63,268 nucleotides of DNA, from NCBI GenBank assembly GCA_964404515.1, contig CAYOKE010000001.1, positions 1-63,268 of the forward strand. The letters run 5' to 3'. The DNA comes from an uncultured Gammaproteobacteria bacterium (lineage in GTDB: Bacteria; Patescibacteriota; Patescibacteriia; Patescibacteriales; UBA12465). Positions 3,721 through 43,760 of the stretch are shown here, one piece after another. A model generated the notes under the pieces. The model searched no databases and was not told the DNA's origin. It worked only from the letters and a program-made list of their open reading frames with translations. The position numbers and the translations under genes are program-made. Every line of letters begins with the position of its first letter. Position 1 is the stretch's first letter.

Positions 3721-3944
3721 ATTTATCCTAGTTATTCAATAATTATACCAAAAAATCGCCAAAAAAGCGATTTCTATTATGTCCCAGTCCGCTTCCGCGT
3801 CGAGCCTGAAAATTTGCTAAAATTTTAAAGGAAATTCTATCCAAAATTTAGTTTATTACCTTTTAATAGCTCAAAACCTTTTAAGATAGCCAGATACTCT
3901 GGGTCGCTACCGAGCTTATGGCCGGCGTATTCTTCGGTTATAAT

Positions 3945-4381
3945 TTATGATTTCCTATCAAGAACGTCATCTAAGCTCAACCACTCTCAAGAAGAGTGGT
4001 CCTCAGGATTGATCCTAATCTTATCAAATGATCCTATGAACTTGGCGAAATAAACCACCTCGACGGTATGCGATTCTTTCACGCGGTTTTCATAGGTGAA
4101 AGCGCTAAAATGATCTCCAATGTTATCCCCATGGCGAATTCCTCCTGGACTTCTCGAGCAAGGCCAGTAATCAATTCCTCACCGAAGTCGATATGCCCTC
4201 CGGGCATTTCGAGTTTGCCAGGTAGAAACTTCTTGGTAGTTGCCTGCTTAGCCAAGAAAAATTTATTGAGGCCATCAAAATCGTGGTGGATAAAAGCGCA
4301 AGCACTCATTACTTGCTGCCCGGACGCGAGAGTTTCGCTATCATGTACTACTTTCCCCATAAATTTACAGCTGGGTGTCAT
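3945..4381 (-). pseudogene. Disrupted Nudix hydrolase gene (one frameshift plus one in-frame TGA)
   Basis: ORF 4079-4381 carries a Nudix box (GGHIDFGEELITGLAREVQEEFAMGI) and then stops. The homologous continuation GDHFSAFTYENRVKESHTVEVVYFAKFIGSFDKIRINPEDHSS reads in another frame from about nt 4118. It is interrupted by TGA at 3987-3989 and then continues in frame as EWLSLDDVLDRKS to TAA at 3945-3947. Confidence 0.7.
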
Positions 4382-12056: not shown

Positions 12057-12635
12057 TTAAATCATTCCCCTCCTTTTTAGCTCAAAAAAGCATTCGGCGC
12101 AAGCACGGACGTCGAAAAGGGCGTCGTGCGCTTCCGGAAAACCGGTTCGGAATAGGAAGTTATAGAGTTCGGTCAAATTGGGCCATTTATAGCCTCCTCG
12201 ACCGTTATCGATCTGGCAAACGGCCGCCGAAGACCGCATCGTGCAGATCTTATTAGCTAAAGATAGATGGTTTGGCAAACCTAAGCGCAATAATTCCGAG
12301 CCGACTATCTTATCATCGAAATCGACATTATGACCGACCAAATGGGACGCCTTTTGAACGTCCTTCAGAAAATGCTCCAAGGCTTTTTTCAATTCCACCC
12401 CCTCGGCCATCGCCCGCTCTTGAGAGATGCGGTGGATATTGGTCGCTTCAATCGGGATAACGAAACCATCTGGCTTAATAACATAGTTATAGCTCTCCCA
12501 ATGTTGGCCGTCAGCATCATAAAGGCTCCAAGCAATCTGGACGATACGTGGCCAATTCAAAAAATCATCAAGCGGTGCTTGATAATTGCGGGGCAACCCA
12601 GTTGTTTCCGTATCAAAAAATAAATACATAGTCAA
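12057..12635 (-). CDS. DEDDh 3'-5' exonuclease (DnaQ/epsilon-like)
   Basis: 192 aa. Exo I FFDTETTGL, Exo II LVGHNVDFDDK, Exo III HDALFDVRA. Its start overlaps the stop of the upstream ATPase by 4 nt. Confidence 0.85.
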   Translation of the reverse strand: MTMYLFFDTETTGLPRNYQAPLDDFLNWPRIVQIAWSLYDADGQHWESYNYVIKPDGFVIPIEATNIHRISQERAMAEGVELKKALEHFLKDVQKASHLVGHNVDFDDKIVGSELLRLGLPNHLSLANKICTMRSSAAVCQIDNGRGGYKWPNLTELYNFLFRTGFPEAHDALFDVRACAECFFELKRRGMI

Positions 12636-14428
12636 TTCTTGATAATTATTTCTTCGCCTTCGCTCAATTCTCCTTCTTCAATCGGCTCCTCTTTAGCTGG
12701 AACTGGCGGGACGATTTTCATCGTCCGGCCCTTGAAATCAACCGGCTGAGCCTTAGCTAGATCCCCCAGCGACAAGGTCGCTACTGGTTCGGCAACTTCT
12801 TCTTCTAAAGTTGCAAAGTGGCGGCGCTCCGCTTCTTTTGCCTCTTGGCGCTTGGCAACCTCCAGGCGCTTCTCCTCCTTCCTGCGACTCAGGCAATCCC
12901 GGCAATAGACTGGTCGGATGCCATCTGGAACGAACGCGACCGTAGTCAATTTACCGCAGCCATCGCAAGCCACTTCCGGCCCGCTCTTTACGATGCGTGG
13001 ATGGTTGGGAGGGGGGGTAACACTAGCGGCCTTGGCTGCTGACCAAGGTAATCCGGCTGGCCTTACGGTCGAAGCCGCATTTTTTTTCGCCGGCGCGGAA
13101 GGCGCCGGTTTCCTGACTATCTGGTTGGCGACCGCCCTATCTTCATCGCCGTAATTCTCGTGCCAACGCATAATCTTCTCTTCGACTACGCTCCGGTCAG
13201 TCGCATATTTTTCCCGGGAATAATTGATGACTTTTTCGGCGTTCCCCGTCTTTTCTTCATTATTAAGCGGCGGCAAACCGCGGGCCGAAAAGGGCGAAGA
13301 GGCGATTCCGTCAATCATCAACTTCAGATACATCTCATATTTCGGCAGGTTGACGATGTCCTCTTCTGTAAAAGTCGGGGTGAATTCCTTAACCAGCTCT
13401 TCGGCGTCGATCGCTCCGACCCGGAAAACGACCATGGTCCCAACGTTCCCAAAAACTGCCGCCTTAACCTTGTCTCCCAGCTGTTCGATATACTGGTGAG
13501 CCAAGATGAGATTCAGGCGATATTTGCGGGCCTCGGATAGGATATTAGCGAAGCTGTCGGTAGAGAAATTCTGGAATTCGTCGATATAGAGATAGAAATC
13601 GCGGCGTTCTTTTTCCGGCACATCCACTCGGCTCATGGCTGCCAGCTGGATCTTCGTGATCATCATCGCCCCCAGGAGGGCAGAATTATCCTCGCCGATG
13701 CGGCCTTTAGACAGATTCATAATCAGGATCTTACCATTATCCATGATATCGCGGATATCGATTGCCGACTTCACCTGACCAATGATATTTCTCATGAGCG
13801 AGCTAGACAAGAATTGGCCAACCTTATTCTGGATAGGAGAAACTGCTTCTGAGGCGAACTTGTCGGCATAGCCGGAAAATTCCTTCTCCCAGAAAGCCTT
13901 CACGACCGGGTCTTTGATATTGGCTACAACCTTCTTGCGGTAATTCTTATCTGAAAGCATGCGGACCACGCCAAGAAGAGTCGAGCCCGGAAAATCGAGG
14001 ATGGCTAAAATAGCATTACGCAATATATACTCTAAGCGTGGTCCCCAGGAATCGGCCCAGAGTTTCTGGAAGACGCCGATGAGGCCGGAAGCGACCAGGT
14101 GCCGCAAGTGAGGCTCGACCTGCTCGACGACATTGAAGGCGATGGGGTAGTTGATATCGGAAGGATTGAAATAGACGACGTCATTTACCCTTTCCGATGG
14201 GATATACTCAATTATCTTTTCAGCTAAATCGCCATGCGGATCAACGACGGCCACGCCATATCCGGCGCGGATGTCATCCACGATCATATTCTCTAAAACG
14301 GTCGACTTCCCCATGCCGGTCTTCCCAATCAAATACATATGCCGGCGACGGTCGTCGATTTTGATTCCGAATTTCTTGAATTCGTTGCGATAGGTTGTCT
14401 GCGCGAAAACCGCAATCTCACTATTCAT
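12632..14428 (-). CDS. VirD4/TraD-like (T4SS coupling-protein-type) P-loop ATPase with a C-terminal CxxC-x17-CxxC zinc ribbon
   Basis: 598 aa. Walker A LIGKTGMGKST, Walker B-like FYLYIDEFQNF, then RKYRLNLILAHQYIEQL, typical of TraD/TrwB/HerA-type hexameric ATPases. No N-terminal TM anchor. The tail has a low-complexity A/P-rich linker and then CDGCGKLTTVAFVPDGIRPVYCRDC (nt 12893-12967). Confidence 0.7.
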   Translation of the reverse strand: MNSEIAVFAQTTYRNEFKKFGIKIDDRRRHMYLIGKTGMGKSTVLENMIVDDIRAGYGVAVVDPHGDLAEKIIEYIPSERVNDVVYFNPSDINYPIAFNVVEQVEPHLRHLVASGLIGVFQKLWADSWGPRLEYILRNAILAILDFPGSTLLGVVRMLSDKNYRKKVVANIKDPVVKAFWEKEFSGYADKFASEAVSPIQNKVGQFLSSSLMRNIIGQVKSAIDIRDIMDNGKILIMNLSKGRIGEDNSALLGAMMITKIQLAAMSRVDVPEKERRDFYLYIDEFQNFSTDSFANILSEARKYRLNLILAHQYIEQLGDKVKAAVFGNVGTMVVFRVGAIDAEELVKEFTPTFTEEDIVNLPKYEMYLKLMIDGIASSPFSARGLPPLNNEEKTGNAEKVINYSREKYATDRSVVEEKIMRWHENYGDEDRAVANQIVRKPAPSAPAKKNAASTVRPAGLPWSAAKAASVTPPPNHPRIVKSGPEVACDGCGKLTTVAFVPDGIRPVYCRDCLSRRKEEKRLEVAKRQEAKEAERRHFATLEEEVAEPVATLSLGDLAKAQPVDFKGRTMKIVPPVPAKEEPIEEGELSEGEEIIIKN

Positions 14429-14790: not shown

Positions 14791-15516
14791 TCAACCCCGG
14801 ACTGCGCAGTGTTCGGCATATCCCCGGCCGATAGAAGCGAACTCCTCCATTTCCGATAAAGAGTACCCCGCTTGCTTCTGGTATCCTTTGTCGATCAGGT
14901 CCGTATCTGACTTAAAACGCTGGAGATACCAATGTTTAGCGCCCTTGATTATTTCGCCCATCTTGGCGAAATCCTCTTTAACCAGCAAGCCGGGGACGAC
15001 TGTCGTCCGGAATTCATAGGGCAAGCCGCTCGACATTATTATTTTAACACTTTTTTCCAGATTACGAAAATCGATCGGTACGCCGACCGTCTCTTCGTAT
15101 TTGTTCCTGGGCGCTTTCAGATCCATGGCGATATAATCAATCAGTTTTTCCTCGATTAGCCGAGCAAGCATCTCCGGATTAGTGCCGTTAGTATCCAGCT
15201 TGACCAGATAACCGATATCCTTGATTTTCTTAATAAAATCCGGGAGATCCGAATGCAAAGTCGGCTCCCCGCCAGTGATGACTACGCCTTCTAGGCGGCC
15301 GTATCTTTCCCGTAAAAAAAGAAAAAGGTCTTTAGTGGAAAACGATGGGGAAAAACCTTTTTCTTTTATGTTTTCGTCCTTTCCCGTTTGGGGCAGGACA
15401 AGCATAGGGTTATAGCAGAAATGGCAGCGGAAATTACAACCTTGGGTAAAGATAATGGCCGCTAGGTGATCAGGGTAATCGATAAGAGATAGTTTCTCTA
15501 AACCGCCGATAACCAT
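14791..15516 (-). CDS. nrdG: Anaerobic ribonucleotide reductase activating enzyme (radical SAM)
   Basis: 241 aa. CxxxCxxC cluster motif GCNFRCHFCYNP. Positioned downstream of nrdD. Confidence 0.85.
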   Translation of the reverse strand: MVIGGLEKLSLIDYPDHLAAIIFTQGCNFRCHFCYNPMLVLPQTGKDENIKEKGFSPSFSTKDLFLFLRERYGRLEGVVITGGEPTLHSDLPDFIKKIKDIGYLVKLDTNGTNPEMLARLIEEKLIDYIAMDLKAPRNKYEETVGVPIDFRNLEKSVKIIMSSGLPYEFRTTVVPGLLVKEDFAKMGEIIKGAKHWYLQRFKSDTDLIDKGYQKQAGYSLSEMEEFASIGRGYAEHCAVRG

Positions 15517-15534
15517 AGGGTTCTCTGATCCGAA

Positions 15535-15675
15535 TTACTCGGCGCAAACCTTGAAAGTCTTGCGGTCCTTGTATTCGGACGCCTTGCCTGGGTTATAGTT
15601 CTTAACCGGGGTCAACCAGCCGACGACGCGGCTGTAGATGATGCATTCCTGGCGTTGTGTCTGGATGGGGCTCAT
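15535..15675 (-). CDS. Stand-alone glycyl-radical peptide corresponding to the C-terminus of NrdD
   Basis: Not in the ORF track because it is under 60 aa. Hand translation: MSPIQTQRQECIIYSRVVGWLTPVKNYNPGKASEYKDRKTFKVCAE. It contains the class III RNR glycyl-radical consensus (YSRVxGY/W..PV..WN.GK..E...R). An alternative in-frame ATG at 15687 gives 50 aa. Confidence 0.75.
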   Translation of the reverse strand: MSPIQTQRQECIIYSRVVGWLTPVKNYNPGKASEYKDRKTFKVCAE

Positions 15676-15708
15676 ATATATTCGCATTATAAACTATAAT
15701 TATCTAAA

Positions 15709-17775
15709 TTACAAATTAGCTTGATTATTGGCAACTGACTGCCTTTCCGTCGTCTCTTCCTGATAGCCAATCTCCTCGTCGCATTTCGGGCAATACTTAT
15801 GTTCCCCGGACAGGTACCCGTGCTTCGGGCAAATAGAGAAGGTAGGCGTAATCGTGAAATATGGCAAACGGTAGTTCTCAACTATTTTCTTGACCAATTT
15901 CTTGGCTGTTTCCCCGTCTGGCAAGCGCTCGCCTAGATAGCCGTGCAGGACCGTACCGCCGGTATATTTGATCTGCAGATCGTCCTGCAAATCGAGGGCC
16001 GAGAAGATATCATCTGTATAATTGACATGCAAATGAGTAGAATTGGTGTAGTAGGGATCGGCACCAAGTTTCTTAACCGCTTCAGCATTAGCACAGATGA
16101 TACCCGGATATAGCTGTTGGTCCTTCTTGGCGAAACGGTAGGTGCAGCCTTCGCCCGGCGTCGCCTCCAAATTATAAAGGTTGTTGGTCTCATTCTGAAA
16201 ATCCATCAGCTTCTCGCGCATAAAATCTAAGATTTCAGCGGCGAAAGCGTGGCCCTCAGGAGAGCTAATATCCTTGCCCATCAGGTTAAGAACTGCCTCG
16301 TTCATGCCGTTAATGCCGATGGTCGAAAAATGGTTTTTCCAATAGGAGCCGAAGCGTTGTCTGATATTACCCAGATAGAACATAGAATAAGGGTAAAGGC
16401 GGTCTTCGGTGAACTTCTCTATTATCTTGCGTTTAATCTCCAGACTCTCCTTGGCTAGATCCATCAACTCTAAGAGCCGATTCTTGAATTCCTCTTTGCT
16501 TTTCGAGAGATAGCCGAGACGAGCCAGGTTGATTGTTACCACGCCCAAGGATCCGGTAAGGGGGTTGGCGCCGAAGAGTCCGCCGCCACGCTTACGCAGT
16601 TCCCGGTTATCGAGCCGCAGGCGGCAACACATGGAACGGGCATCATCGCGTTTCATGTCCGAATTCACGAAATTCGAGAAATAAGGGATACCATACTTAG
16701 CCGTCATCTCCCAGGCTGGTTTCAGGCATTCTCGATTCCAGTCGAAATCCTTATCGACATTATAGGTTGGGATCGGGAAGCCGAAGACGCGACCAGTCGA
16801 ATCTCCCGCCAGCATCACCTCCGCAAAAGCCTGGTTGAACATATCCATTTCTGGCTGAAAATCCTTGTATTTCTCCGGCATGATCTTGCCGCCGATAATG
16901 GCGTTCTCTTCGCCGATCATGGGCGACGGGACAACGTCCAGAGTGACGTTGGTGAATGGGGTCTGGAAACCGACGCGGGTCGGGACATTGATATTAAACA
17001 TGAACTCCTGAAGGCCCTGCTTCACTTCTTCGTAGGTGAGGTGGTCATAGCGGATAAAAGGCGCTAAATAGGTATCGAAATTAGCGAAGGCTTGAGCGCC
17101 GGCCGCTTCGCCCTGCATGGTATAGAAGAAATTTATAATCTGACCTAGAGCGCTGCGGAAATGCTTAGGCGGGTTGCTCTGAACCTTTTCATTAACTCCG
17201 CGGAAACCGCGTATCAAAAGATCTTTCAGATCCCAACCGCAGCAATAGGGCGCCAACAAGCCTAAATCATGAAGATGCAAATCACCGTTAATGTGGGCTT
17301 GGCGGATATTCTCCGGGTACATCTTATTGAGCCAATAGCGAGCCGAAATCGAGGAGGCGATATAATTATTTAAGCCTTGGACCGAAAAACTCATGTTGCT
17401 ATTTTCCTTTAAACGCCAATCGGACCGGCCCAGGTAATCTTCCATCAGCTTATCATCCAGGGTGGCTTTATTAATATCGCGTAACTGGCGATGCTGTTCG
17501 CGGTAGAGGATATAGGCTTTCGCGACTTTTATCAGCTTATTCTCGATCAAGATTTCTTCGACGACATCTTGAATCTCTTCAACCGCCGGGATGCTGTTCT
17601 TATGAAATTTCTTATTGATCTTCATTACTACCTGATCGGATAGCTTCTTCGCTAAGTGCCGGTCATCAATCTCAACAGCCAAAGCCGCCTTATAGATAGC
17701 TTTAGCAATTTTGTCTTGGTCAAAGTTGACGATTTCGCCAGATCTCTTGATCAATTTGCTGATAACTTCTGACAT
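15709..17775 (-). CDS. nrdD: Anaerobic (class III) ribonucleoside-triphosphate reductase, large fragment lacking the glycyl-radical segment
   Basis: 688 aa. N-terminal ATP-cone (KRSGEIVNFDQDKIAKAI), the conserved core, and the C-terminal Zn site CPKHGYLSGEHKYCPKC. It then ends after 20 non-conserved residues without an RVxGY motif. Confidence 0.9.
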   Translation of the reverse strand: MSEVISKLIKRSGEIVNFDQDKIAKAIYKAALAVEIDDRHLAKKLSDQVVMKINKKFHKNSIPAVEEIQDVVEEILIENKLIKVAKAYILYREQHRQLRDINKATLDDKLMEDYLGRSDWRLKENSNMSFSVQGLNNYIASSISARYWLNKMYPENIRQAHINGDLHLHDLGLLAPYCCGWDLKDLLIRGFRGVNEKVQSNPPKHFRSALGQIINFFYTMQGEAAGAQAFANFDTYLAPFIRYDHLTYEEVKQGLQEFMFNINVPTRVGFQTPFTNVTLDVVPSPMIGEENAIIGGKIMPEKYKDFQPEMDMFNQAFAEVMLAGDSTGRVFGFPIPTYNVDKDFDWNRECLKPAWEMTAKYGIPYFSNFVNSDMKRDDARSMCCRLRLDNRELRKRGGGLFGANPLTGSLGVVTINLARLGYLSKSKEEFKNRLLELMDLAKESLEIKRKIIEKFTEDRLYPYSMFYLGNIRQRFGSYWKNHFSTIGINGMNEAVLNLMGKDISSPEGHAFAAEILDFMREKLMDFQNETNNLYNLEATPGEGCTYRFAKKDQQLYPGIICANAEAVKKLGADPYYTNSTHLHVNYTDDIFSALDLQDDLQIKYTGGTVLHGYLGERLPDGETAKKLVKKIVENYRLPYFTITPTFSICPKHGYLSGEHKYCPKCDEEIGYQEETTERQSVANNQANL

Positions 17776-17802: not shown

Positions 17803-18261
17803 TTAGTTCTTTTCCTTGATTAGCTTATTGAGTTCTCTTTTAAACTCATGGGCATCCTTGAATGACTCATAGACCGAGGCATAACGGATATAGGCAACCT
17901 GGTCGATTTTCTTCAGATTCTTCATGACTACTTGGCCGACCTGCTGGGAAGTAATCTCGCTCTTCTTGAGGCGCTGGAGGTCCCGTTCGATGGAATGGAT
18001 CAGCTTCTTGAAGCGATCTTCGGTGATCGGGCGCTTTTCGCAGGACTTTTTCAAGCCGCTCACCATCTTATCGCGGCTGTAGGTCTCACGCCTACCATCC
18101 CTCTTGACAATAATCAGATCTAATAGCTCTATCTCCTCATAGGTCGAGAAGCGGAAAGCACATTTCAGACATTCCCGGCGGCGACGGATTGAGAGCCCGT
18201 CCTGGGCCACCCGGGAATCGACAACTTTGGTGTCCGGATAGTAACAAATGGGGCATTTCAT
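17803..18261 (-). CDS. nrdR: Transcriptional repressor NrdR
   Basis: 152 aa. Zn ribbon MKCPICYYPDTKVVDSR...CLKCAFRFSTYE plus an ATP-cone. Confidence 0.9.
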   Translation of the reverse strand: MKCPICYYPDTKVVDSRVAQDGLSIRRRRECLKCAFRFSTYEEIELLDLIIVKRDGRRETYSRDKMVSGLKKSCEKRPITEDRFKKLIHSIERDLQRLKKSEITSQQVGQVVMKNLKKIDQVAYIRYASVYESFKDAHEFKRELNKLIKEKN

Positions 18262-18303: not shown

Positions 18304-18389
18304 ACCCTATATTTTGTGTCTTCTTAAAAAAATAGACCACTAAATGTTGTATCTAGTAATATTTTAGCAAATTTTTACCTTCGGGTCAA
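18304..18389 (-). promoter_or_regulatory. Candidate sigma70-type promoter with two NrdR-box-like sites upstream of nrdR-nrdD
   Basis: On the minus strand: TTGACC (18384-18389), 17 nt, TAAAAT (18361-18366). Downstream of it, box B is at 18337-18352 (plus strand CCACTAAATGTTGTAT, 12/16 to acaCwAtATaTwGtgt). Box A is at 18304-18319 (minus strand ACACAAAATATAGGGT, 14/16). Centres are 33 bp apart. Confidence 0.5.
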
Positions 18390-18525: not shown

Positions 18526-19716
18526 TTAACCCATCTTCTTCCGAATAAAGGCTGGCACGCTCAGGTCGTCATCGTCATTCATGGGCTTTTCGGCCTTCTT
18601 TTCCAAGGCGGGCTTGACTGGGATGTTCTTGAAGACGTTGAATTTCCCCTTATTCTTGTCAACTGATGTCGAAGGCATCCCCGGTTCTTTTTCGGCCTCC
18701 TTCTCGATAATGAAAGTATTCGGGGTATAGGACTTAGTCATCTCATTCTTCTGGCTCTTGCCTCGGCCGTCGAAACCGGTCGCTACGACTGTTATCTTAA
18801 TCTGGTCCTTCATCTTCTCGTCGATGACGGCGCCAAAGATAATCTTGGCATCATCATCGGCAGCCGAGGTTATCACTTTGGCCGCTTCGGAAACTTCAGT
18901 CATGGAAAGATCGGTACCGCCGGTGATTGTGAAGACGATGCCACGAGCGCCGTCAATGGACATGTCCAAAAGATTAGAATTGATAGCATCCTTGGCCGCT
19001 TCGACCGCCTTGTTCTCGCCTGAAGCCGTGCCAATGCCCATAAGCGCCGAGCCGGCGTTAGACATGACAGCTTTCACGTCGGCGAAGTCGGCGTTTATGA
19101 TGCCAGGGACGGTGATAATCTCCGCGATTCCCTGCACGCCTTGGCGCAGAACGTCGTCAGCGATCTTGAAAGCTTCGAGAAGTGAGGTCTTCTTGTCTAT
19201 CACCTGCAACAGCTTGTCGTTGGAAATGGTGATTATGGTATCAACCTTATCCGCCAATTCAGCAAAAGCACGGTCGGCAATATTCTTGCGCTGGCCGCCC
19301 TCGAACATAAAAGGCTTAGTCACGACCGCGACAGTGAGAGCGCCGAGCTCTTTCGCAATCTGGGCGACAATAGGCGAAGCGCCAGAACCAGTGCCGCCGC
19401 CCAGGCCGCAGGTGACAAAAACCATATCACAACCCTTGATCGCTTCCCGAATTTCATTCTGGGATTCTTCCGCGGCGCCTTTGCCGAGATCAGGGTCCAT
19501 ACCCGCGCCTAAACCGCGGGTTACGGTCTTGCCAATATGGATCTTCTCATTCGCCTTGTTATAATGTAGGGCCTGGACGTCAGTATTTATCGCCACGAAG
19601 CCGACGCCCTTGATGCCGTTGTCAACCATACGGTTTATGGCACTGCCGCCACCGCCACCCACGCCGATGACTTTTATTTTAGCAAAAGTTTCTATTTCTG
19701 GTTTGACTTCCGCCAT
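18526..19716 (-). CDS. ftsZ: Cell division GTPase FtsZ
   Basis: 396 aa. Tubulin signature GGGTGSGASP and N-terminal VIGVGGGGGSAINRM. Confidence 0.95.
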   Translation of the reverse strand: MAEVKPEIETFAKIKVIGVGGGGGSAINRMVDNGIKGVGFVAINTDVQALHYNKANEKIHIGKTVTRGLGAGMDPDLGKGAAEESQNEIREAIKGCDMVFVTCGLGGGTGSGASPIVAQIAKELGALTVAVVTKPFMFEGGQRKNIADRAFAELADKVDTIITISNDKLLQVIDKKTSLLEAFKIADDVLRQGVQGIAEIITVPGIINADFADVKAVMSNAGSALMGIGTASGENKAVEAAKDAINSNLLDMSIDGARGIVFTITGGTDLSMTEVSEAAKVITSAADDDAKIIFGAVIDEKMKDQIKITVVATGFDGRGKSQKNEMTKSYTPNTFIIEKEAEKEPGMPSTSVDKNKGKFNVFKNIPVKPALEKKAEKPMNDDDDLSVPAFIRKKMG

Positions 19717-41090: not shown

Positions 41091-43760
41091 TTATTTGCAA
41101 TTACCATCCGCCCCTAAAGTGCTGGTAGCTGTGCCAAAACAGCAGGACGGATTATCGGCTGTCGCCGCGCAATTAGGCGCTACGCTCGGCTTATAGCAAT
41201 TCTGATAGATATCCTTGACCCCAGAACCAACCTGGGCCTTATAGGTGACAGATTGGGAAAAATTACTATGAAATATCCGGGTAATCGTCGTATCTGGTTC
41301 GCCATCCAGGGGAGACGAATCTAGGTTCTCACTCAGGATCCAATATCCTAATGGCGACGGGGAAGCGCTGCGCAAGTTGACTAGCTTATGCTCGAAAGTG
41401 CTGGTTCCGCTCTGGACCAAGGTACTGCCAGTCCTAAGGGTACTATTCATCATCAAGGCGTTGAAATTAATCTGAACCTCATCCGCCAAAGCAACTTCTG
41501 TCTGACCCTGGGAAATATTGACAAAGGTGATTTGCGGCGGATCGATAGCAATCTTATCATTTATATAGAAAGACCATTTATACTTATCTTTCTTATCTAT
41601 ATTCTGTGTCGGCGGCAGGTTATCGTTATAGAAATCTATCGGCCCGTCGGCGTAGATATCTCGATCACCATCCAGAGAGTTAATAGCGGCATCGACGATA
41701 CCGTCCAAGTTGGTCAGGTTAGCCGTCGGGTAATTCTTATTCTGCTCGTTCTGGCAAGTCTTATGCTCCAAAGGCGAAGAAGAGCAGGTCCGGAAAGGAT
41801 TATAAGAAATACAGTCGTTATCAGTATCACAGGTTTTTAAATCCGCTGCCACCAGTTCGACTGACAAATGGCTATTAGCCGGCAAGCAGTAAATTTTTTC
41901 ACCGCAGCCGTTCATGCCGCATTCCTGGTCAGAAATGAATTCGACCGTCTTGTAACCGTTAGAAATCATGAACTTCCCGCCTAAGTAATTACCGACGCAA
42001 GCATTGCTCTGACATTTGTACGAACGACAATCTTCGTTTTCATTACAATAGGTGCTAGCCGGGGAGCTGGAGGCATCGGCATTAACGACCTGAATATAGC
42101 TCGCTACTTCGCTAGCTAGGCCGGAAACGGTTACCGGATTAATCGCTTCATTAAAATTAATCTGAATAACGGAATTCATCGGCCGATCCTTCCTATCCTT
42201 AACTTGACTGCTTTCCTGACGATTTACCCCACCAGAAAACGGTTTGATTGCCAAGGCTTGGTTGTTGTTAGTTGCGAGGACGATATTATTACCTGTTTCC
42301 CCAGCAACTTTAGCAGTCAAAAACACTGAGTTATTCTTGCGATCGACGTCTATCTGTTCATGGCCGCTCAATTTCGCTTCGATATTGGCCGCTTGGATGT
42401 TACTGTCGCATGCCCCAGACGGAACGGCGATATTATTGTTAGCTGAAGAAGTGGCGAAGGTATAGATCACCGACCCAATTGTTAGGGTATCAGCTAGCTG
42501 TTCTGGCTTCAGAGCGATTGTCCATAGGCTCCCAACTTGATGATCAGTTGCCTTGAAGGTGAAATAGCCGGTGAAAACAGCAACACCGTTGCTGTCAAAG
42601 TCGGCTATACCCAACAAAGCATCATTGCCATCGAATAATTGGGCCTTATCAGTCGCCGGGACAGCGACTTTGAACTTATTTATCGTTCCATAGTAGCTAA
42701 GGGTTATTTCTGGTCCGGCAGGAACGATAGAGACGACTTCAGCCGGCGAATAGGTCTGAGGACAAGAATTGACAGTAATCGTTCCCTTAGCCGCAATCGC
42801 CGATGTCACTTCTCTGTAGACATCTTTTTCGTTGTCAGGCGTCGGAAAGATCTGCCCGGCTACAGTCTGCGGCGGCGCTAAATCGAAACTAGTATTAACC
42901 AAGAATTTCCATTCTACATAGTTGTTATTGCAGGTAGCAAACATGGAAGTGCCGTCCAATTTCTTGAGCTGGTTAGTAAAACGGACGGAATACCAGGTAT
43001 TTTCAACTTGGGAACCGAGGGGATCGACCGGCGTCAGGACTAGAGTTTTGCCACCACCCGCCACGTTCACCAAAATATTGGTAATATTAGAATTAGGGTC
43101 AGGGCAACTGCCGTTCTTACAGGCGTCGCCTAGTTCTGTCTTATAAATCCTGATTGCCATAGGATTCACCTTATTGCAAGCCGTCTGGTTGCAGCCGCAG
43201 GCTTCGCCTTGATCGTCGACGCAAGCCGATTCTAAATCTATCTGCTCCTTGAAAGTTACCATTATCGAAGTGTTGCGCGGGACGTCCTTCTGGTTATCAG
43301 TCGGGTAATAGTCGTCAATCGTACAGGCGCCAATCGCCCCAGTCCCAGCATTGGTGAAACCGCCGCCGCCAAAATTTCCGCCATTACCATTAATGGCGCC
43401 GGCCAACTTGGTTAGCAAGAAAGTGACTATCGCCCAAGAACAGACGATGATAAGTAGACCGATAGCCGCATTCTTTAGGATATTTCTAGCCCGACCGATC
43501 TTTTCTTCGTCGCCACCGGAAGTCATCCACACGAATCCGGCATAAATTACTAGGATGACAGCAATCGCTCCTAATAATGACAAAACGATCTGGATAATCC
43601 GGCCGATTATGATACGCGGGTCGGTAGAGGTCAAAGAATTAGCTAGACCATTGCTGACCTCCTCTAAACCAAAATTGGCCTGGGCTAAAGCAAAATCAGC
43701 CACTCCGAACATTATCAAGAGGCTGAAAACTAGGATGATTAATTTAACTTTTTTAGACAT
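41091..43760 (-). CDS. Large (889 aa) surface protein: VirB2/TrbC-like pilin hairpin fused to Ig-like (SbsA/Big-type) domains and a Cys-containing ectodomain
   Basis: aa 1-125 are about 55% identical to the N-terminus of the 2186-aa protein (GLANSLT.TD, GRII, SGGDE(D/E)KI, SWAI). They are followed by a G-rich linker and Ig-like segments (YYPTDNQKDVPRNTSIMVTFKEQID; RPMNSVIQINFNEAINPVTV). Confidence 0.8.
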   Translation of the reverse strand: MSKKVKLIILVFSLLIMFGVADFALAQANFGLEEVSNGLANSLTSTDPRIIIGRIIQIVLSLLGAIAVILVIYAGFVWMTSGGDEEKIGRARNILKNAAIGLLIIVCSWAIVTFLLTKLAGAINGNGGNFGGGGFTNAGTGAIGACTIDDYYPTDNQKDVPRNTSIMVTFKEQIDLESACVDDQGEACGCNQTACNKVNPMAIRIYKTELGDACKNGSCPDPNSNITNILVNVAGGGKTLVLTPVDPLGSQVENTWYSVRFTNQLKKLDGTSMFATCNNNYVEWKFLVNTSFDLAPPQTVAGQIFPTPDNEKDVYREVTSAIAAKGTITVNSCPQTYSPAEVVSIVPAGPEITLSYYGTINKFKVAVPATDKAQLFDGNDALLGIADFDSNGVAVFTGYFTFKATDHQVGSLWTIALKPEQLADTLTIGSVIYTFATSSANNNIAVPSGACDSNIQAANIEAKLSGHEQIDVDRKNNSVFLTAKVAGETGNNIVLATNNNQALAIKPFSGGVNRQESSQVKDRKDRPMNSVIQINFNEAINPVTVSGLASEVASYIQVVNADASSSPASTYCNENEDCRSYKCQSNACVGNYLGGKFMISNGYKTVEFISDQECGMNGCGEKIYCLPANSHLSVELVAADLKTCDTDNDCISYNPFRTCSSSPLEHKTCQNEQNKNYPTANLTNLDGIVDAAINSLDGDRDIYADGPIDFYNDNLPPTQNIDKKDKYKWSFYINDKIAIDPPQITFVNISQGQTEVALADEVQINFNALMMNSTLRTGSTLVQSGTSTFEHKLVNLRSASPSPLGYWILSENLDSSPLDGEPDTTITRIFHSNFSQSVTYKAQVGSGVKDIYQNCYKPSVAPNCAATADNPSCCFGTATSTLGADGNCK

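Follow-up and report, generated by a model that had tools for sequence, protein, structure and literature searches.

Two-gene class III ribonucleotide reductase of Patescibacteria with the glycyl-radical loop encoded by a separate small gene

Gene layout at the nrdD locus

The stretch of DNA analysed here, positions 1 to 63,268 of contig CAYOKE010000001.1 (assembly GCA_964404515.1, filed under an uncultured Gammaproteobacteria bacterium and placed by GTDB in the Patescibacteriota; hereafter the window), carries the gene for the anaerobic, class III ribonucleotide reductase (RNR) NrdD in two pieces. A large open reading frame (ORF) encodes a body of 688 amino acids (aa) that ends shortly after its zinc ribbon, and a small ORF of 46 aa encodes the glycyl-radical loop that is missing from the body. 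Both lie on the minus strand in the order ftsZ, nrdR, nrdD body, small ORF and nrdG, and only 18 nucleotides (nt) separate the end of the small ORF from the start of nrdG. The elements of the locus, in window positions, are the following.

19716..18526, minus strand: ftsZ, upstream of nrdR
17803..18261, minus strand: nrdR, transcriptional repressor of RNR genes, 152 aa (Zn_ribbon_NrdR, E 3.4e-20; ATP-cone, E 2.1e-19)
15709..17775, minus strand: nrdD body, 688 aa, stop included (Pfam NRDD 1-529/562; NF006126, 1037.9 bits)
17488..17754, minus strand: ATP-cone of the nrdD body, residues 8-96 (PF03477, E 2e-20)
16621..16632, minus strand: predicted finger-loop motif MCCR, body residues 382-385 (seen in the sequence; alignment to 8P23)
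15781..15831, minus strand: zinc ribbon CPKH...CPKC, body residues 649-665, the final conserved element of the body
15712..15780, minus strand: tail of the body, 23 residues, variable (DEEIGYQEETTERQSVANNQANL), a linker remnant
15676..15708, minus strand: spacer, 33 nt, AT-rich, with two more same-frame stops and TATAAT
15535..15675, minus strand: small-subunit gene, 46 aa plus stop, MSPIQTQRQECIIYSRVVGWLTPVKNYNPGKASEYKDRKTFKVCAE (NRDD 531-562/562)
14791..15516, minus strand: nrdG, radical-SAM activase, 241 aa (TIGR02495, NrdG2)

The large ORF covers profile positions 1-529 of 562 of Pfam NRDD (E 6.5e-184, 613.1 bits against a cut-off of 26.2) and also exceeds the cut-offs of NCBIfam NF006126 (cut-off 548) and TIGR02487 (521.2 bits, cut-off 326.35), while the product of the nrdG gene scores 213.6 bits against TIGR02495 (cut-off 131.15). 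Within the body, C384 of the MCCR motif is aligned to the thiyl-radical cysteine of P. copri NrdD (8P23; MGCR region), and by this alignment the finger-loop cysteine of class III RNRs is present. By its sequence the body falls into the double-cysteine MCCR subgroup of NrdD that has been described (PMC9669993). The first-pass annotation of this DNA had the NrdD ORF ending 20 residues after the zinc ribbon without its radical-bearing segment. The absence of the segment was borne out, and the distance was corrected: the ORF (17775..15709) stops 23 residues past CPKHGYLSGEHKYCPKC, and the RVxG[YFW] glycyl-radical loop is absent from the 688-aa chain after the zinc ribbon, being encoded on the next ORF.

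The three in-frame stops (TAA, TAA and TAG) that had been reported at the junction, followed by a new ATG in the same frame, could all be located, the stops within 15711-15694 (TAA at 15711-15709, TAA at 15702-15700 and TAG at 15696-15694). After them come two in-frame starts, ATG 15687 (MRIY..., 50 aa) and ATG 15675 (MSPIQ..., 46 aa), which share the end TAA 15537-15535, so that the junction read in frame is ...CPKHGYLSGEHKYCPKCDEEIGYQEETTERQSVANNQANL*FR*L*FIMRIYMSPIQTQRQECIIYSRVVGWLTPVKNYNPGKASEYKDRKTFKVCAE*. The small ORF continues the Pfam NRDD profile (PF13597) where the body leaves it, matching positions 531-562 of 562 (E 2.1e-6, 27.1 bits, cut-off 26.2), which agrees with its earlier description as the missing C-terminal glycyl-radical loop. 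It also matches NrdD models of NCBIfam, and it contains the loop RVVGW with the radical glycine at Gly19 (codon GGC, 15621-15619). PF13597 is its sole Pfam match; no match to the Gly_radical family of pyruvate formate-lyase (PFL) type was found in Pfam.

Homologues of the small ORF are found as free-standing ORFs of 41-85 aa in at least 100 clusters, on contigs of up to 510 kb. The ORF had been described as unannotated and as 46-50 aa long. The first description does not apply everywhere, as certain sources name homologues 'anaerobic ribonucleoside-triphosphate reductase'. Regarding its length, the ORF is real and its first ATG is not the start: because the small ORFs of relatives begin with ATG and the residues MSP, sequence comparison places the true start at the second ATG (15675), which gives 46 aa. 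Across the loci described below, the start is always ATG followed by MSP or, rarely, MAP.

Conservation, independent initiation and origin of the split

Relatives of the body were collected from GTDB with one genome per species; 356 genomes encode such a relative, and 80 loci were fetched, 78 of them with DNA downstream of the body. A separate small ORF is present in all 78 of these informative loci, and in every one of them nrdG lies directly downstream of it; nrdR is present at 79 of the 80. The survey of related nrdD loci that the first-pass annotation had called for returned the same split at these 78. The best 120 relatives of the large ORF, at 86-96% identity, are 673-703 aa long or, when lengthened by inteins, 1004-1040 aa, and in all 120 the chain ends 9-30 aa after CPxC without RVxG[YW]. 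Together, the loop-less large subunits and the separate small ORFs support the earlier proposal that the radical domain is supplied in trans.

The peptide itself is conserved in sequence. Over 76 loci (2850 pairs), the proportion of synonymous differences (pS) is 0.79, near saturation, against a proportion of nonsynonymous differences (pN) of 0.11 (pN/pS 0.14), and the peptide is under strong purifying selection. In an alignment of 55 sequences the residues Y14, R16, V17, V18, W20, T22, P23, N28, G30, K31, E34 and R38 are invariant, and G19 is present in at least 90%. The radical glycine is followed by Trp in place of Tyr, which is characteristic of the clade and also seen in its unsplit sisters.

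These data bear on the most trivial account of the locus, namely that nrdD was broken by misassembly or by nonsense mutations of recent date, leaving an artefact or a decaying pseudogene in an organism that relies on another RNR. The 501-nt junction (15450-15950) shows 0 differences and 0 gaps in separately assembled contigs from four runs of four studies; the four matching assemblies come from bioreactor, wastewater and sludge metagenomes of 2019 to 2024, and the window itself may derive from one of the four. The split is real and not a sequencing error, as had been argued from the three stops and the new ATG. With this identical junction, the split kept in 78 of 78 loci, the strong selection on the peptide and a body that is 86-96% identical across 120 clusters, conservation rules out the reading of the split gene as an artefact or pseudogene. 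We found no point in its favour and give it practically no credence. The ten largest ORFs of the window include no other RNR, and the window has no second nrdD or second copy of the peptide.

We also considered whether the two ORFs might be joined during or after translation, by a ribosome that reads through or hops over the spacer or by split-intein ligation of the two chains. The two ORFs of the window do share a frame, as such recoding would have it. Across the loci, however, the small ORF lies in frame 0, +1 or +2 relative to the body in 33, 23 and 23 cases, respectively (window included), and therefore neither read-through nor hopping can account for the arrangement and the peptide, on this comparison of frames, is translated independently. 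The spacers of relatives range from 11 to 184 nt (median 71), cannot be aligned, and hold several stops with no conserved take-off or landing sequence; the conserved feature is the ATG start, and no Rfam element was matched in the spacer region. As for a split intein, the tails of the bodies (9-42 aa, with DEEIGY their only conserved part) and the 10-residue N-terminus of the peptide are too short and too variable to be intein halves. Frame distribution and tail lengths together effectively rule out read-through, hopping and split inteins, and we hold recoding of any such kind to be highly improbable.

How the small ORF is expressed was examined in its upstream region. TATAAT occurs at 15691-15686, 10 nt ahead of the start codon, and recurs upstream of the small ORF in 25 of 79 loci, compared with 13.6 in shuffles (shuffle maximum 26); one promoter-like match lies in the window. 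A promoter of its own or a leaderless mRNA was set aside as an explanation, because the TATAAT signal is too weak to carry it in loci that are so closely related. A Shine-Dalgarno-like site precedes 7 of 79 small ORFs, and its absence is uninformative because just 6 of 43 genes of the window (ORFs of at least 150 aa) have one. Upstream regions in the window are AT-rich, frequently with AAT or CAT just before the ATG, and most translation starts in this organism appear to do without Shine-Dalgarno sites.

Single-chain relatives were sought with the C-terminal 147 residues of the read-through fusion of body and peptide, and three were found among the 120 matches listed. One of them, P0372 (L120:3001-5124), is a single chain of 707 aa that is 75% identical to the body, and the other two, P0382 and P0385, are single chains at 65-68% identity. 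In these proteins, zinc ribbon and glycyl loop are connected by a variable linker, of 22 aa in P0372 and of 40 aa in P0382 and P0385, and the glycine is again followed by Trp. The gene order around P0372 and P0382, ftsA-ftsZ-nrdR-nrdD, is shared with the window. A continuous nrdD in related genomes had been named beforehand as a sign that the split is an artefact; continuous genes do exist in close relatives (P0372 and P0382), where they encode naturally single-chain orthologues in the corresponding syntenic position and are no sign of an artefact in the window.

In a tree of 95 bodies (IQ-TREE, quick search), 82 split sequences and P0372 form one clade (SH-aLRT 100), whose sister is the unsplit pair P0382/P0385 (support 95). 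P0372 is nested within the split clade, beside the split locus L075 (support 100); compared with L075 it is 136 nt shorter at the junction, and it has an in-frame ATG GCT CAA... (MAQLKRQDC) where the small ORF would start. The simplest reading of this tree is one fission at the base of the Patescibacteria clade, within a linker that was already long and poorly conserved, followed by one re-fusion, in P0372. The two-gene state has been kept across hundreds of species since the fission. Further afield, the best 150 representatives of 50%-identity clusters comprise 71 that reach the zinc ribbon without a loop, 66 with a loop and 13 fragments. A FastTree of these 150 gives 22 state changes, at least 10 of them forced by supported branches, which are upper estimates, some of the 'split' labels being truncations at contig ends (e.g. 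P0244).

Much of this history is what neutral gene fission would leave behind, in which a linker that is flexible and dispensable is cut without effect on function, the chains reassemble, and the state drifts between split and fused. The single-chain sisters have variable linkers of 22-40 aa at exactly the same place, the re-fusion is nested, neither length nor sequence is constrained in the tails and spacers, and changes of state recur across the family. Against this, none of the 78 loci, with body identities as low as 74%, lacks the split, and a single reversion was seen, which suggests stability or a mild advantage, and neutral fission leaves unexplained the lone copies in phages that are described below. 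We consider a purely neutral origin a serious contender, at a little short of even chances.

Two further features of these relatives were observed. A group of larger bodies (P0129, P0146, P0211 and most of P0221-P0370) is 800-1879 aa long, with the query matched in 2-4 separate stretches, and P0211 bears the Pfam intein PF14890; the NrdD bodies of this group appear often to hold one to three inteins. Many loci (L001, L002, L007-L009 and many more) are labelled 'uncultured Gammaproteobacteria bacterium' and yet cluster tightly with Falkowbacteria/Patescibacteria loci, with which they share synteny, and from their sequences the Gammaproteobacteria labels on such metagenome-assembled genome records look wrong.

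A probable two-chain enzyme and the possible exchange of its radical peptide

As the body lacks a loop, we take the peptide to be a regular and obligate radical subunit, and we regard a naturally two-chain class III RNR as very probable. In such an enzyme the body would contribute the ATP-cone, the ten-stranded barrel with its finger-loop cysteine (MCCR) and the zinc ribbon, and the separately initiated 46-aa protein would contribute a beta-hairpin, at the tip of which Gly19 (RVVGW) would hold the stable radical. One transcription unit of nrdR, nrdD-body, nrdD-tip and nrdG would yield both chains. On the peptide, Gly19 would lose its hydrogen to NrdG, the hairpin would dock non-covalently in the barrel beside Cys384, and catalysis would then run as in single-chain NrdD. 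Of this scheme, the joining of the two chains, the loading of the peptide by NrdG, whether free or docked, and the activity of the enzyme are inferred.

To obtain a structural model, the read-through fusion was folded with AlphaFold2 (AF2) from a 51-row alignment, with the three stops translated as Gly to give a flexible linker. The model has a mean predicted local distance difference test (pLDDT) score of 87.8 and a predicted template modelling (pTM) score of 0.82, and its sole long stretch of low confidence, 677-701 (pLDDT <50), comprises the tail of the body and the artificial linker. The peptide is predicted at pLDDT 74-86 as a beta-hairpin (712-717/720-723), with the radical glycine Gly19 (Gly719 in the numbering of the fusion) at the turn, followed by a helix; the model of the natural single chain P0372 has the same hairpin-helix pattern. 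Compared with solved class III RNRs, the fusion model reaches template modelling (TM) scores of up to 0.76. It thus appears to agree with a normal NrdD fold, as a consistency check and not as proof of docking.

Some points weigh against the two-chain enzyme as drawn. That the peptide is made, is bound by the body and bears the radical would follow from the genes indirectly rather than from direct observation; the locus was matched in none of the RNA runs; and the fusion model leans towards the canonical fold because its alignment includes single-chain homologues.

A candidate regulatory region of the proposed transcription unit lies ahead of nrdR and consists of the following elements.

18304..18352, minus strand: two NrdR-box-like sites, 18304-18319 (1 mismatch) and 18337-18352 (3 mismatches), upstream of nrdR
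18389..18361, minus strand: promoter-like site TTGACC-17-TAAAAT, upstream of the NrdR-box-like pair

The two palindromes are 33 nt apart and lie just downstream of the promoter-like site. Scanned with what we take to be the NrdR-box consensus, the window holds 5 such matches, against 1.25 expected. The pair suggests a candidate autoregulated nrdR-nrdD-tip-nrdG operon, and is best taken as a lead to an operator only.

A separate peptide could also be a consumable one, and the split might be kept for that reason. Oxygen cleaves the chain at a glycyl radical, and in a split enzyme just the 5-kDa peptide might be remade and swapped into an intact 79-kDa body, as with a cartridge; the peptide may even be activated by NrdG off the enzyme and then exchanged. 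This idea refines the two-chain enzyme rather than excluding it, and cheap replacement after O2 cleavage, which the first-pass annotation had raised, is by analogy a possible advantage of the split. There is a precedent in GrcA/YfiD, a free glycyl-radical module that is activated and complements a damaged glycyl radical enzyme (GRE), as given in PMC13450708 and PMC8683613, and the glycyl radical domain of P. copri NrdD is highly mobile (PMC11226230). The weak enrichment of TATAAT ahead of the small ORF and the recurrent loss and gain of the loop across NrdD clusters (the 22 changes, at least 10 of them forced) could be read in the same direction.

Further points come from viral sequences. Relatives of the peptide are encoded at 39 loci in IMG/VR. 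At about 33 of these the small ORF stands alone in phage-like surroundings, with neither an nrdD body nor nrdG inside a distance of 4 kb; the closest of these lone viral peptides are 63-89% identical to that of the window. Their neighbours fall into tail-fibre, homing-endonuclease and glycosyltransferase PHROGs, along with many ORFans. Such lone NrdD-type glycyl-loop ORFs of 43-80 aa lie on putative phage contigs of 20-46 kb (L081-L111; for example L081:4001-4141, L085:4001-4126 and L110:4001-4126). In three viral cases (L107, L113 and L098, at about 3800-4110), an extra N-terminal segment resembling a CxxC...CxxC zinc ribbon is fused to the glycyl loop, which places a whole glycyl radical domain in one mini-protein.

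Because of these lone copies on phage-like contigs, the idea of exchange stays alive. Other observations speak against a consumable peptide: the window has no extra copy of it, its gene is present in a single dose, within the operon, the genes have been re-fused in a near relative, which means that the split is not indispensable, and the TATAAT signal is weak, its observations not being independent. On balance we consider routine replacement of the peptide unlikely. In its fullest form, the idea would make the peptide a freely exchangeable radical carrier, which NrdG loads off the enzyme, which plugs into any vacant body and is replaced after cleavage by oxygen, and whose mini-gene phages carry to sustain the dNTP (deoxyribonucleoside triphosphate) supply of the host during infection. 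This we would call a speculative proposal with small odds; if true, such a carrier would give a first example of a glycyl-radical 'cartridge' from beyond the pyruvate formate-lyase family, and a natural separation of the long-debated undocking step in the activation of GREs from catalysis.

Irrespective of exchange, a two-chain class III RNR would have consequences for both annotation and biochemistry. Calling only the ORF of 680-690 aa, or flagging it as truncated, would misjudge the RNR of hundreds of Patescibacteria species, and an overlooked gene of 46 codons would hide an essential subunit of what may be the sole dNTP route of such organisms. How an activase gains access to a buried glycyl loop is an unsettled structural question. 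A natural enzyme with its loop on a separate 5-kDa protein would offer a system in which to study the action of the activase on a free loop, the docking and exchange of the loop, and repair of oxygen damage by swapping.

Elsewhere in the window, a TrwB-like type IV coupling protein (12632-14428) is encoded directly downstream of nrdG, and 41091-43760 encodes an 889-aa protein with a type IV secretion system (T4SS) pilin domain, beside surface-type proteins of 1026 aa and 2108 aa (TIG, fn3, Gly-rich).

Comparison with known reductases and glycyl-radical spare parts

The closest known systems are the single-chain NrdD/NrdG pairs (P. copri 8P23, S. thermophilus 9D3X, T. maritima 4COI/4U3E, phage T4 1H78; NF006126), with which the window system has in common the ATP-cone, barrel, MCCR finger loop, zinc ribbon and RVxG sequence, as well as an adjacent activase of NrdG2 type and apparent regulation by NrdR. 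Judged by these features taken jointly, the window genes are a variant architecture of class III RNR and not a non-member. What sets them apart from single-chain NrdD is the glycyl loop on a second polypeptide. The zinc site and the loop have been described as one rigid-body glycyl radical domain (PMC11226230); in the window the cut falls inside that domain, leaving the zinc ribbon on the body and the loop free. A literature search, which left most papers in subscription journals outside its coverage, found no published split class III RNR, in line with the earlier remark that no characterised split NrdD of such a kind was known. The two-gene NrdD is therefore apparently an unpublished architectural variant of a well-known enzyme. 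To our knowledge, all characterised GREs carry the radical glycine on the catalytic chain.

Small free-standing glycyl-loop proteins are known from E. coli (GrcA/YfiD) and phage T4 (Y06I). An activase can load the loop of these proteins, which completes the barrel of PFL in trans. GrcA serves as a spare to an enzyme with a loop of its own; it is of PFL type, encoded apart from that enzyme and induced by stress. The window peptide resembles them in being a small protein that would provide the loop in trans, with copies carried by phages, and differs in being the only loop, of NrdD type, 46 aa long and encoded inside the operon. The first-pass annotation had likened the peptide to a GrcA/YfiD spare part, and as stated the likeness does not hold. 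Neither the body nor its best 120 relatives have a loop of their own that would coexist with the peptide, the window has no second copy, the peptide lies in the operon, and it belongs to NRDD, with no homology to the PFL-type Gly_radical family. A 2026 review names formate lyases as the sole GRE class for which spare parts have been identified (PMC13450708).

A nearer parallel is found among RNRs that are encoded in pieces. In class I, a homing endonuclease gene reportedly splits the NrdA of phage Aeh1. In class II, the split pair NrdJa/NrdJb is known from Pseudomonas aeruginosa (Crona et al. 2015, as cited in PMC9669993). As in NrdJa/NrdJb and Aeh1 NrdA, the catalytic subunit of the window enzyme comes from two adjacent genes, whose products would here too reassemble, and as for NrdJa/NrdJb the genes are adjacent and co-oriented, cover complementary parts of the NRDD profile and are kept together in 78 of 78 loci. 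Those reductases belong to other classes and are cut at other sites, which do not put the radical-storing residue on a mini-protein, unlike the arrangement seen at the Patescibacteria locus.

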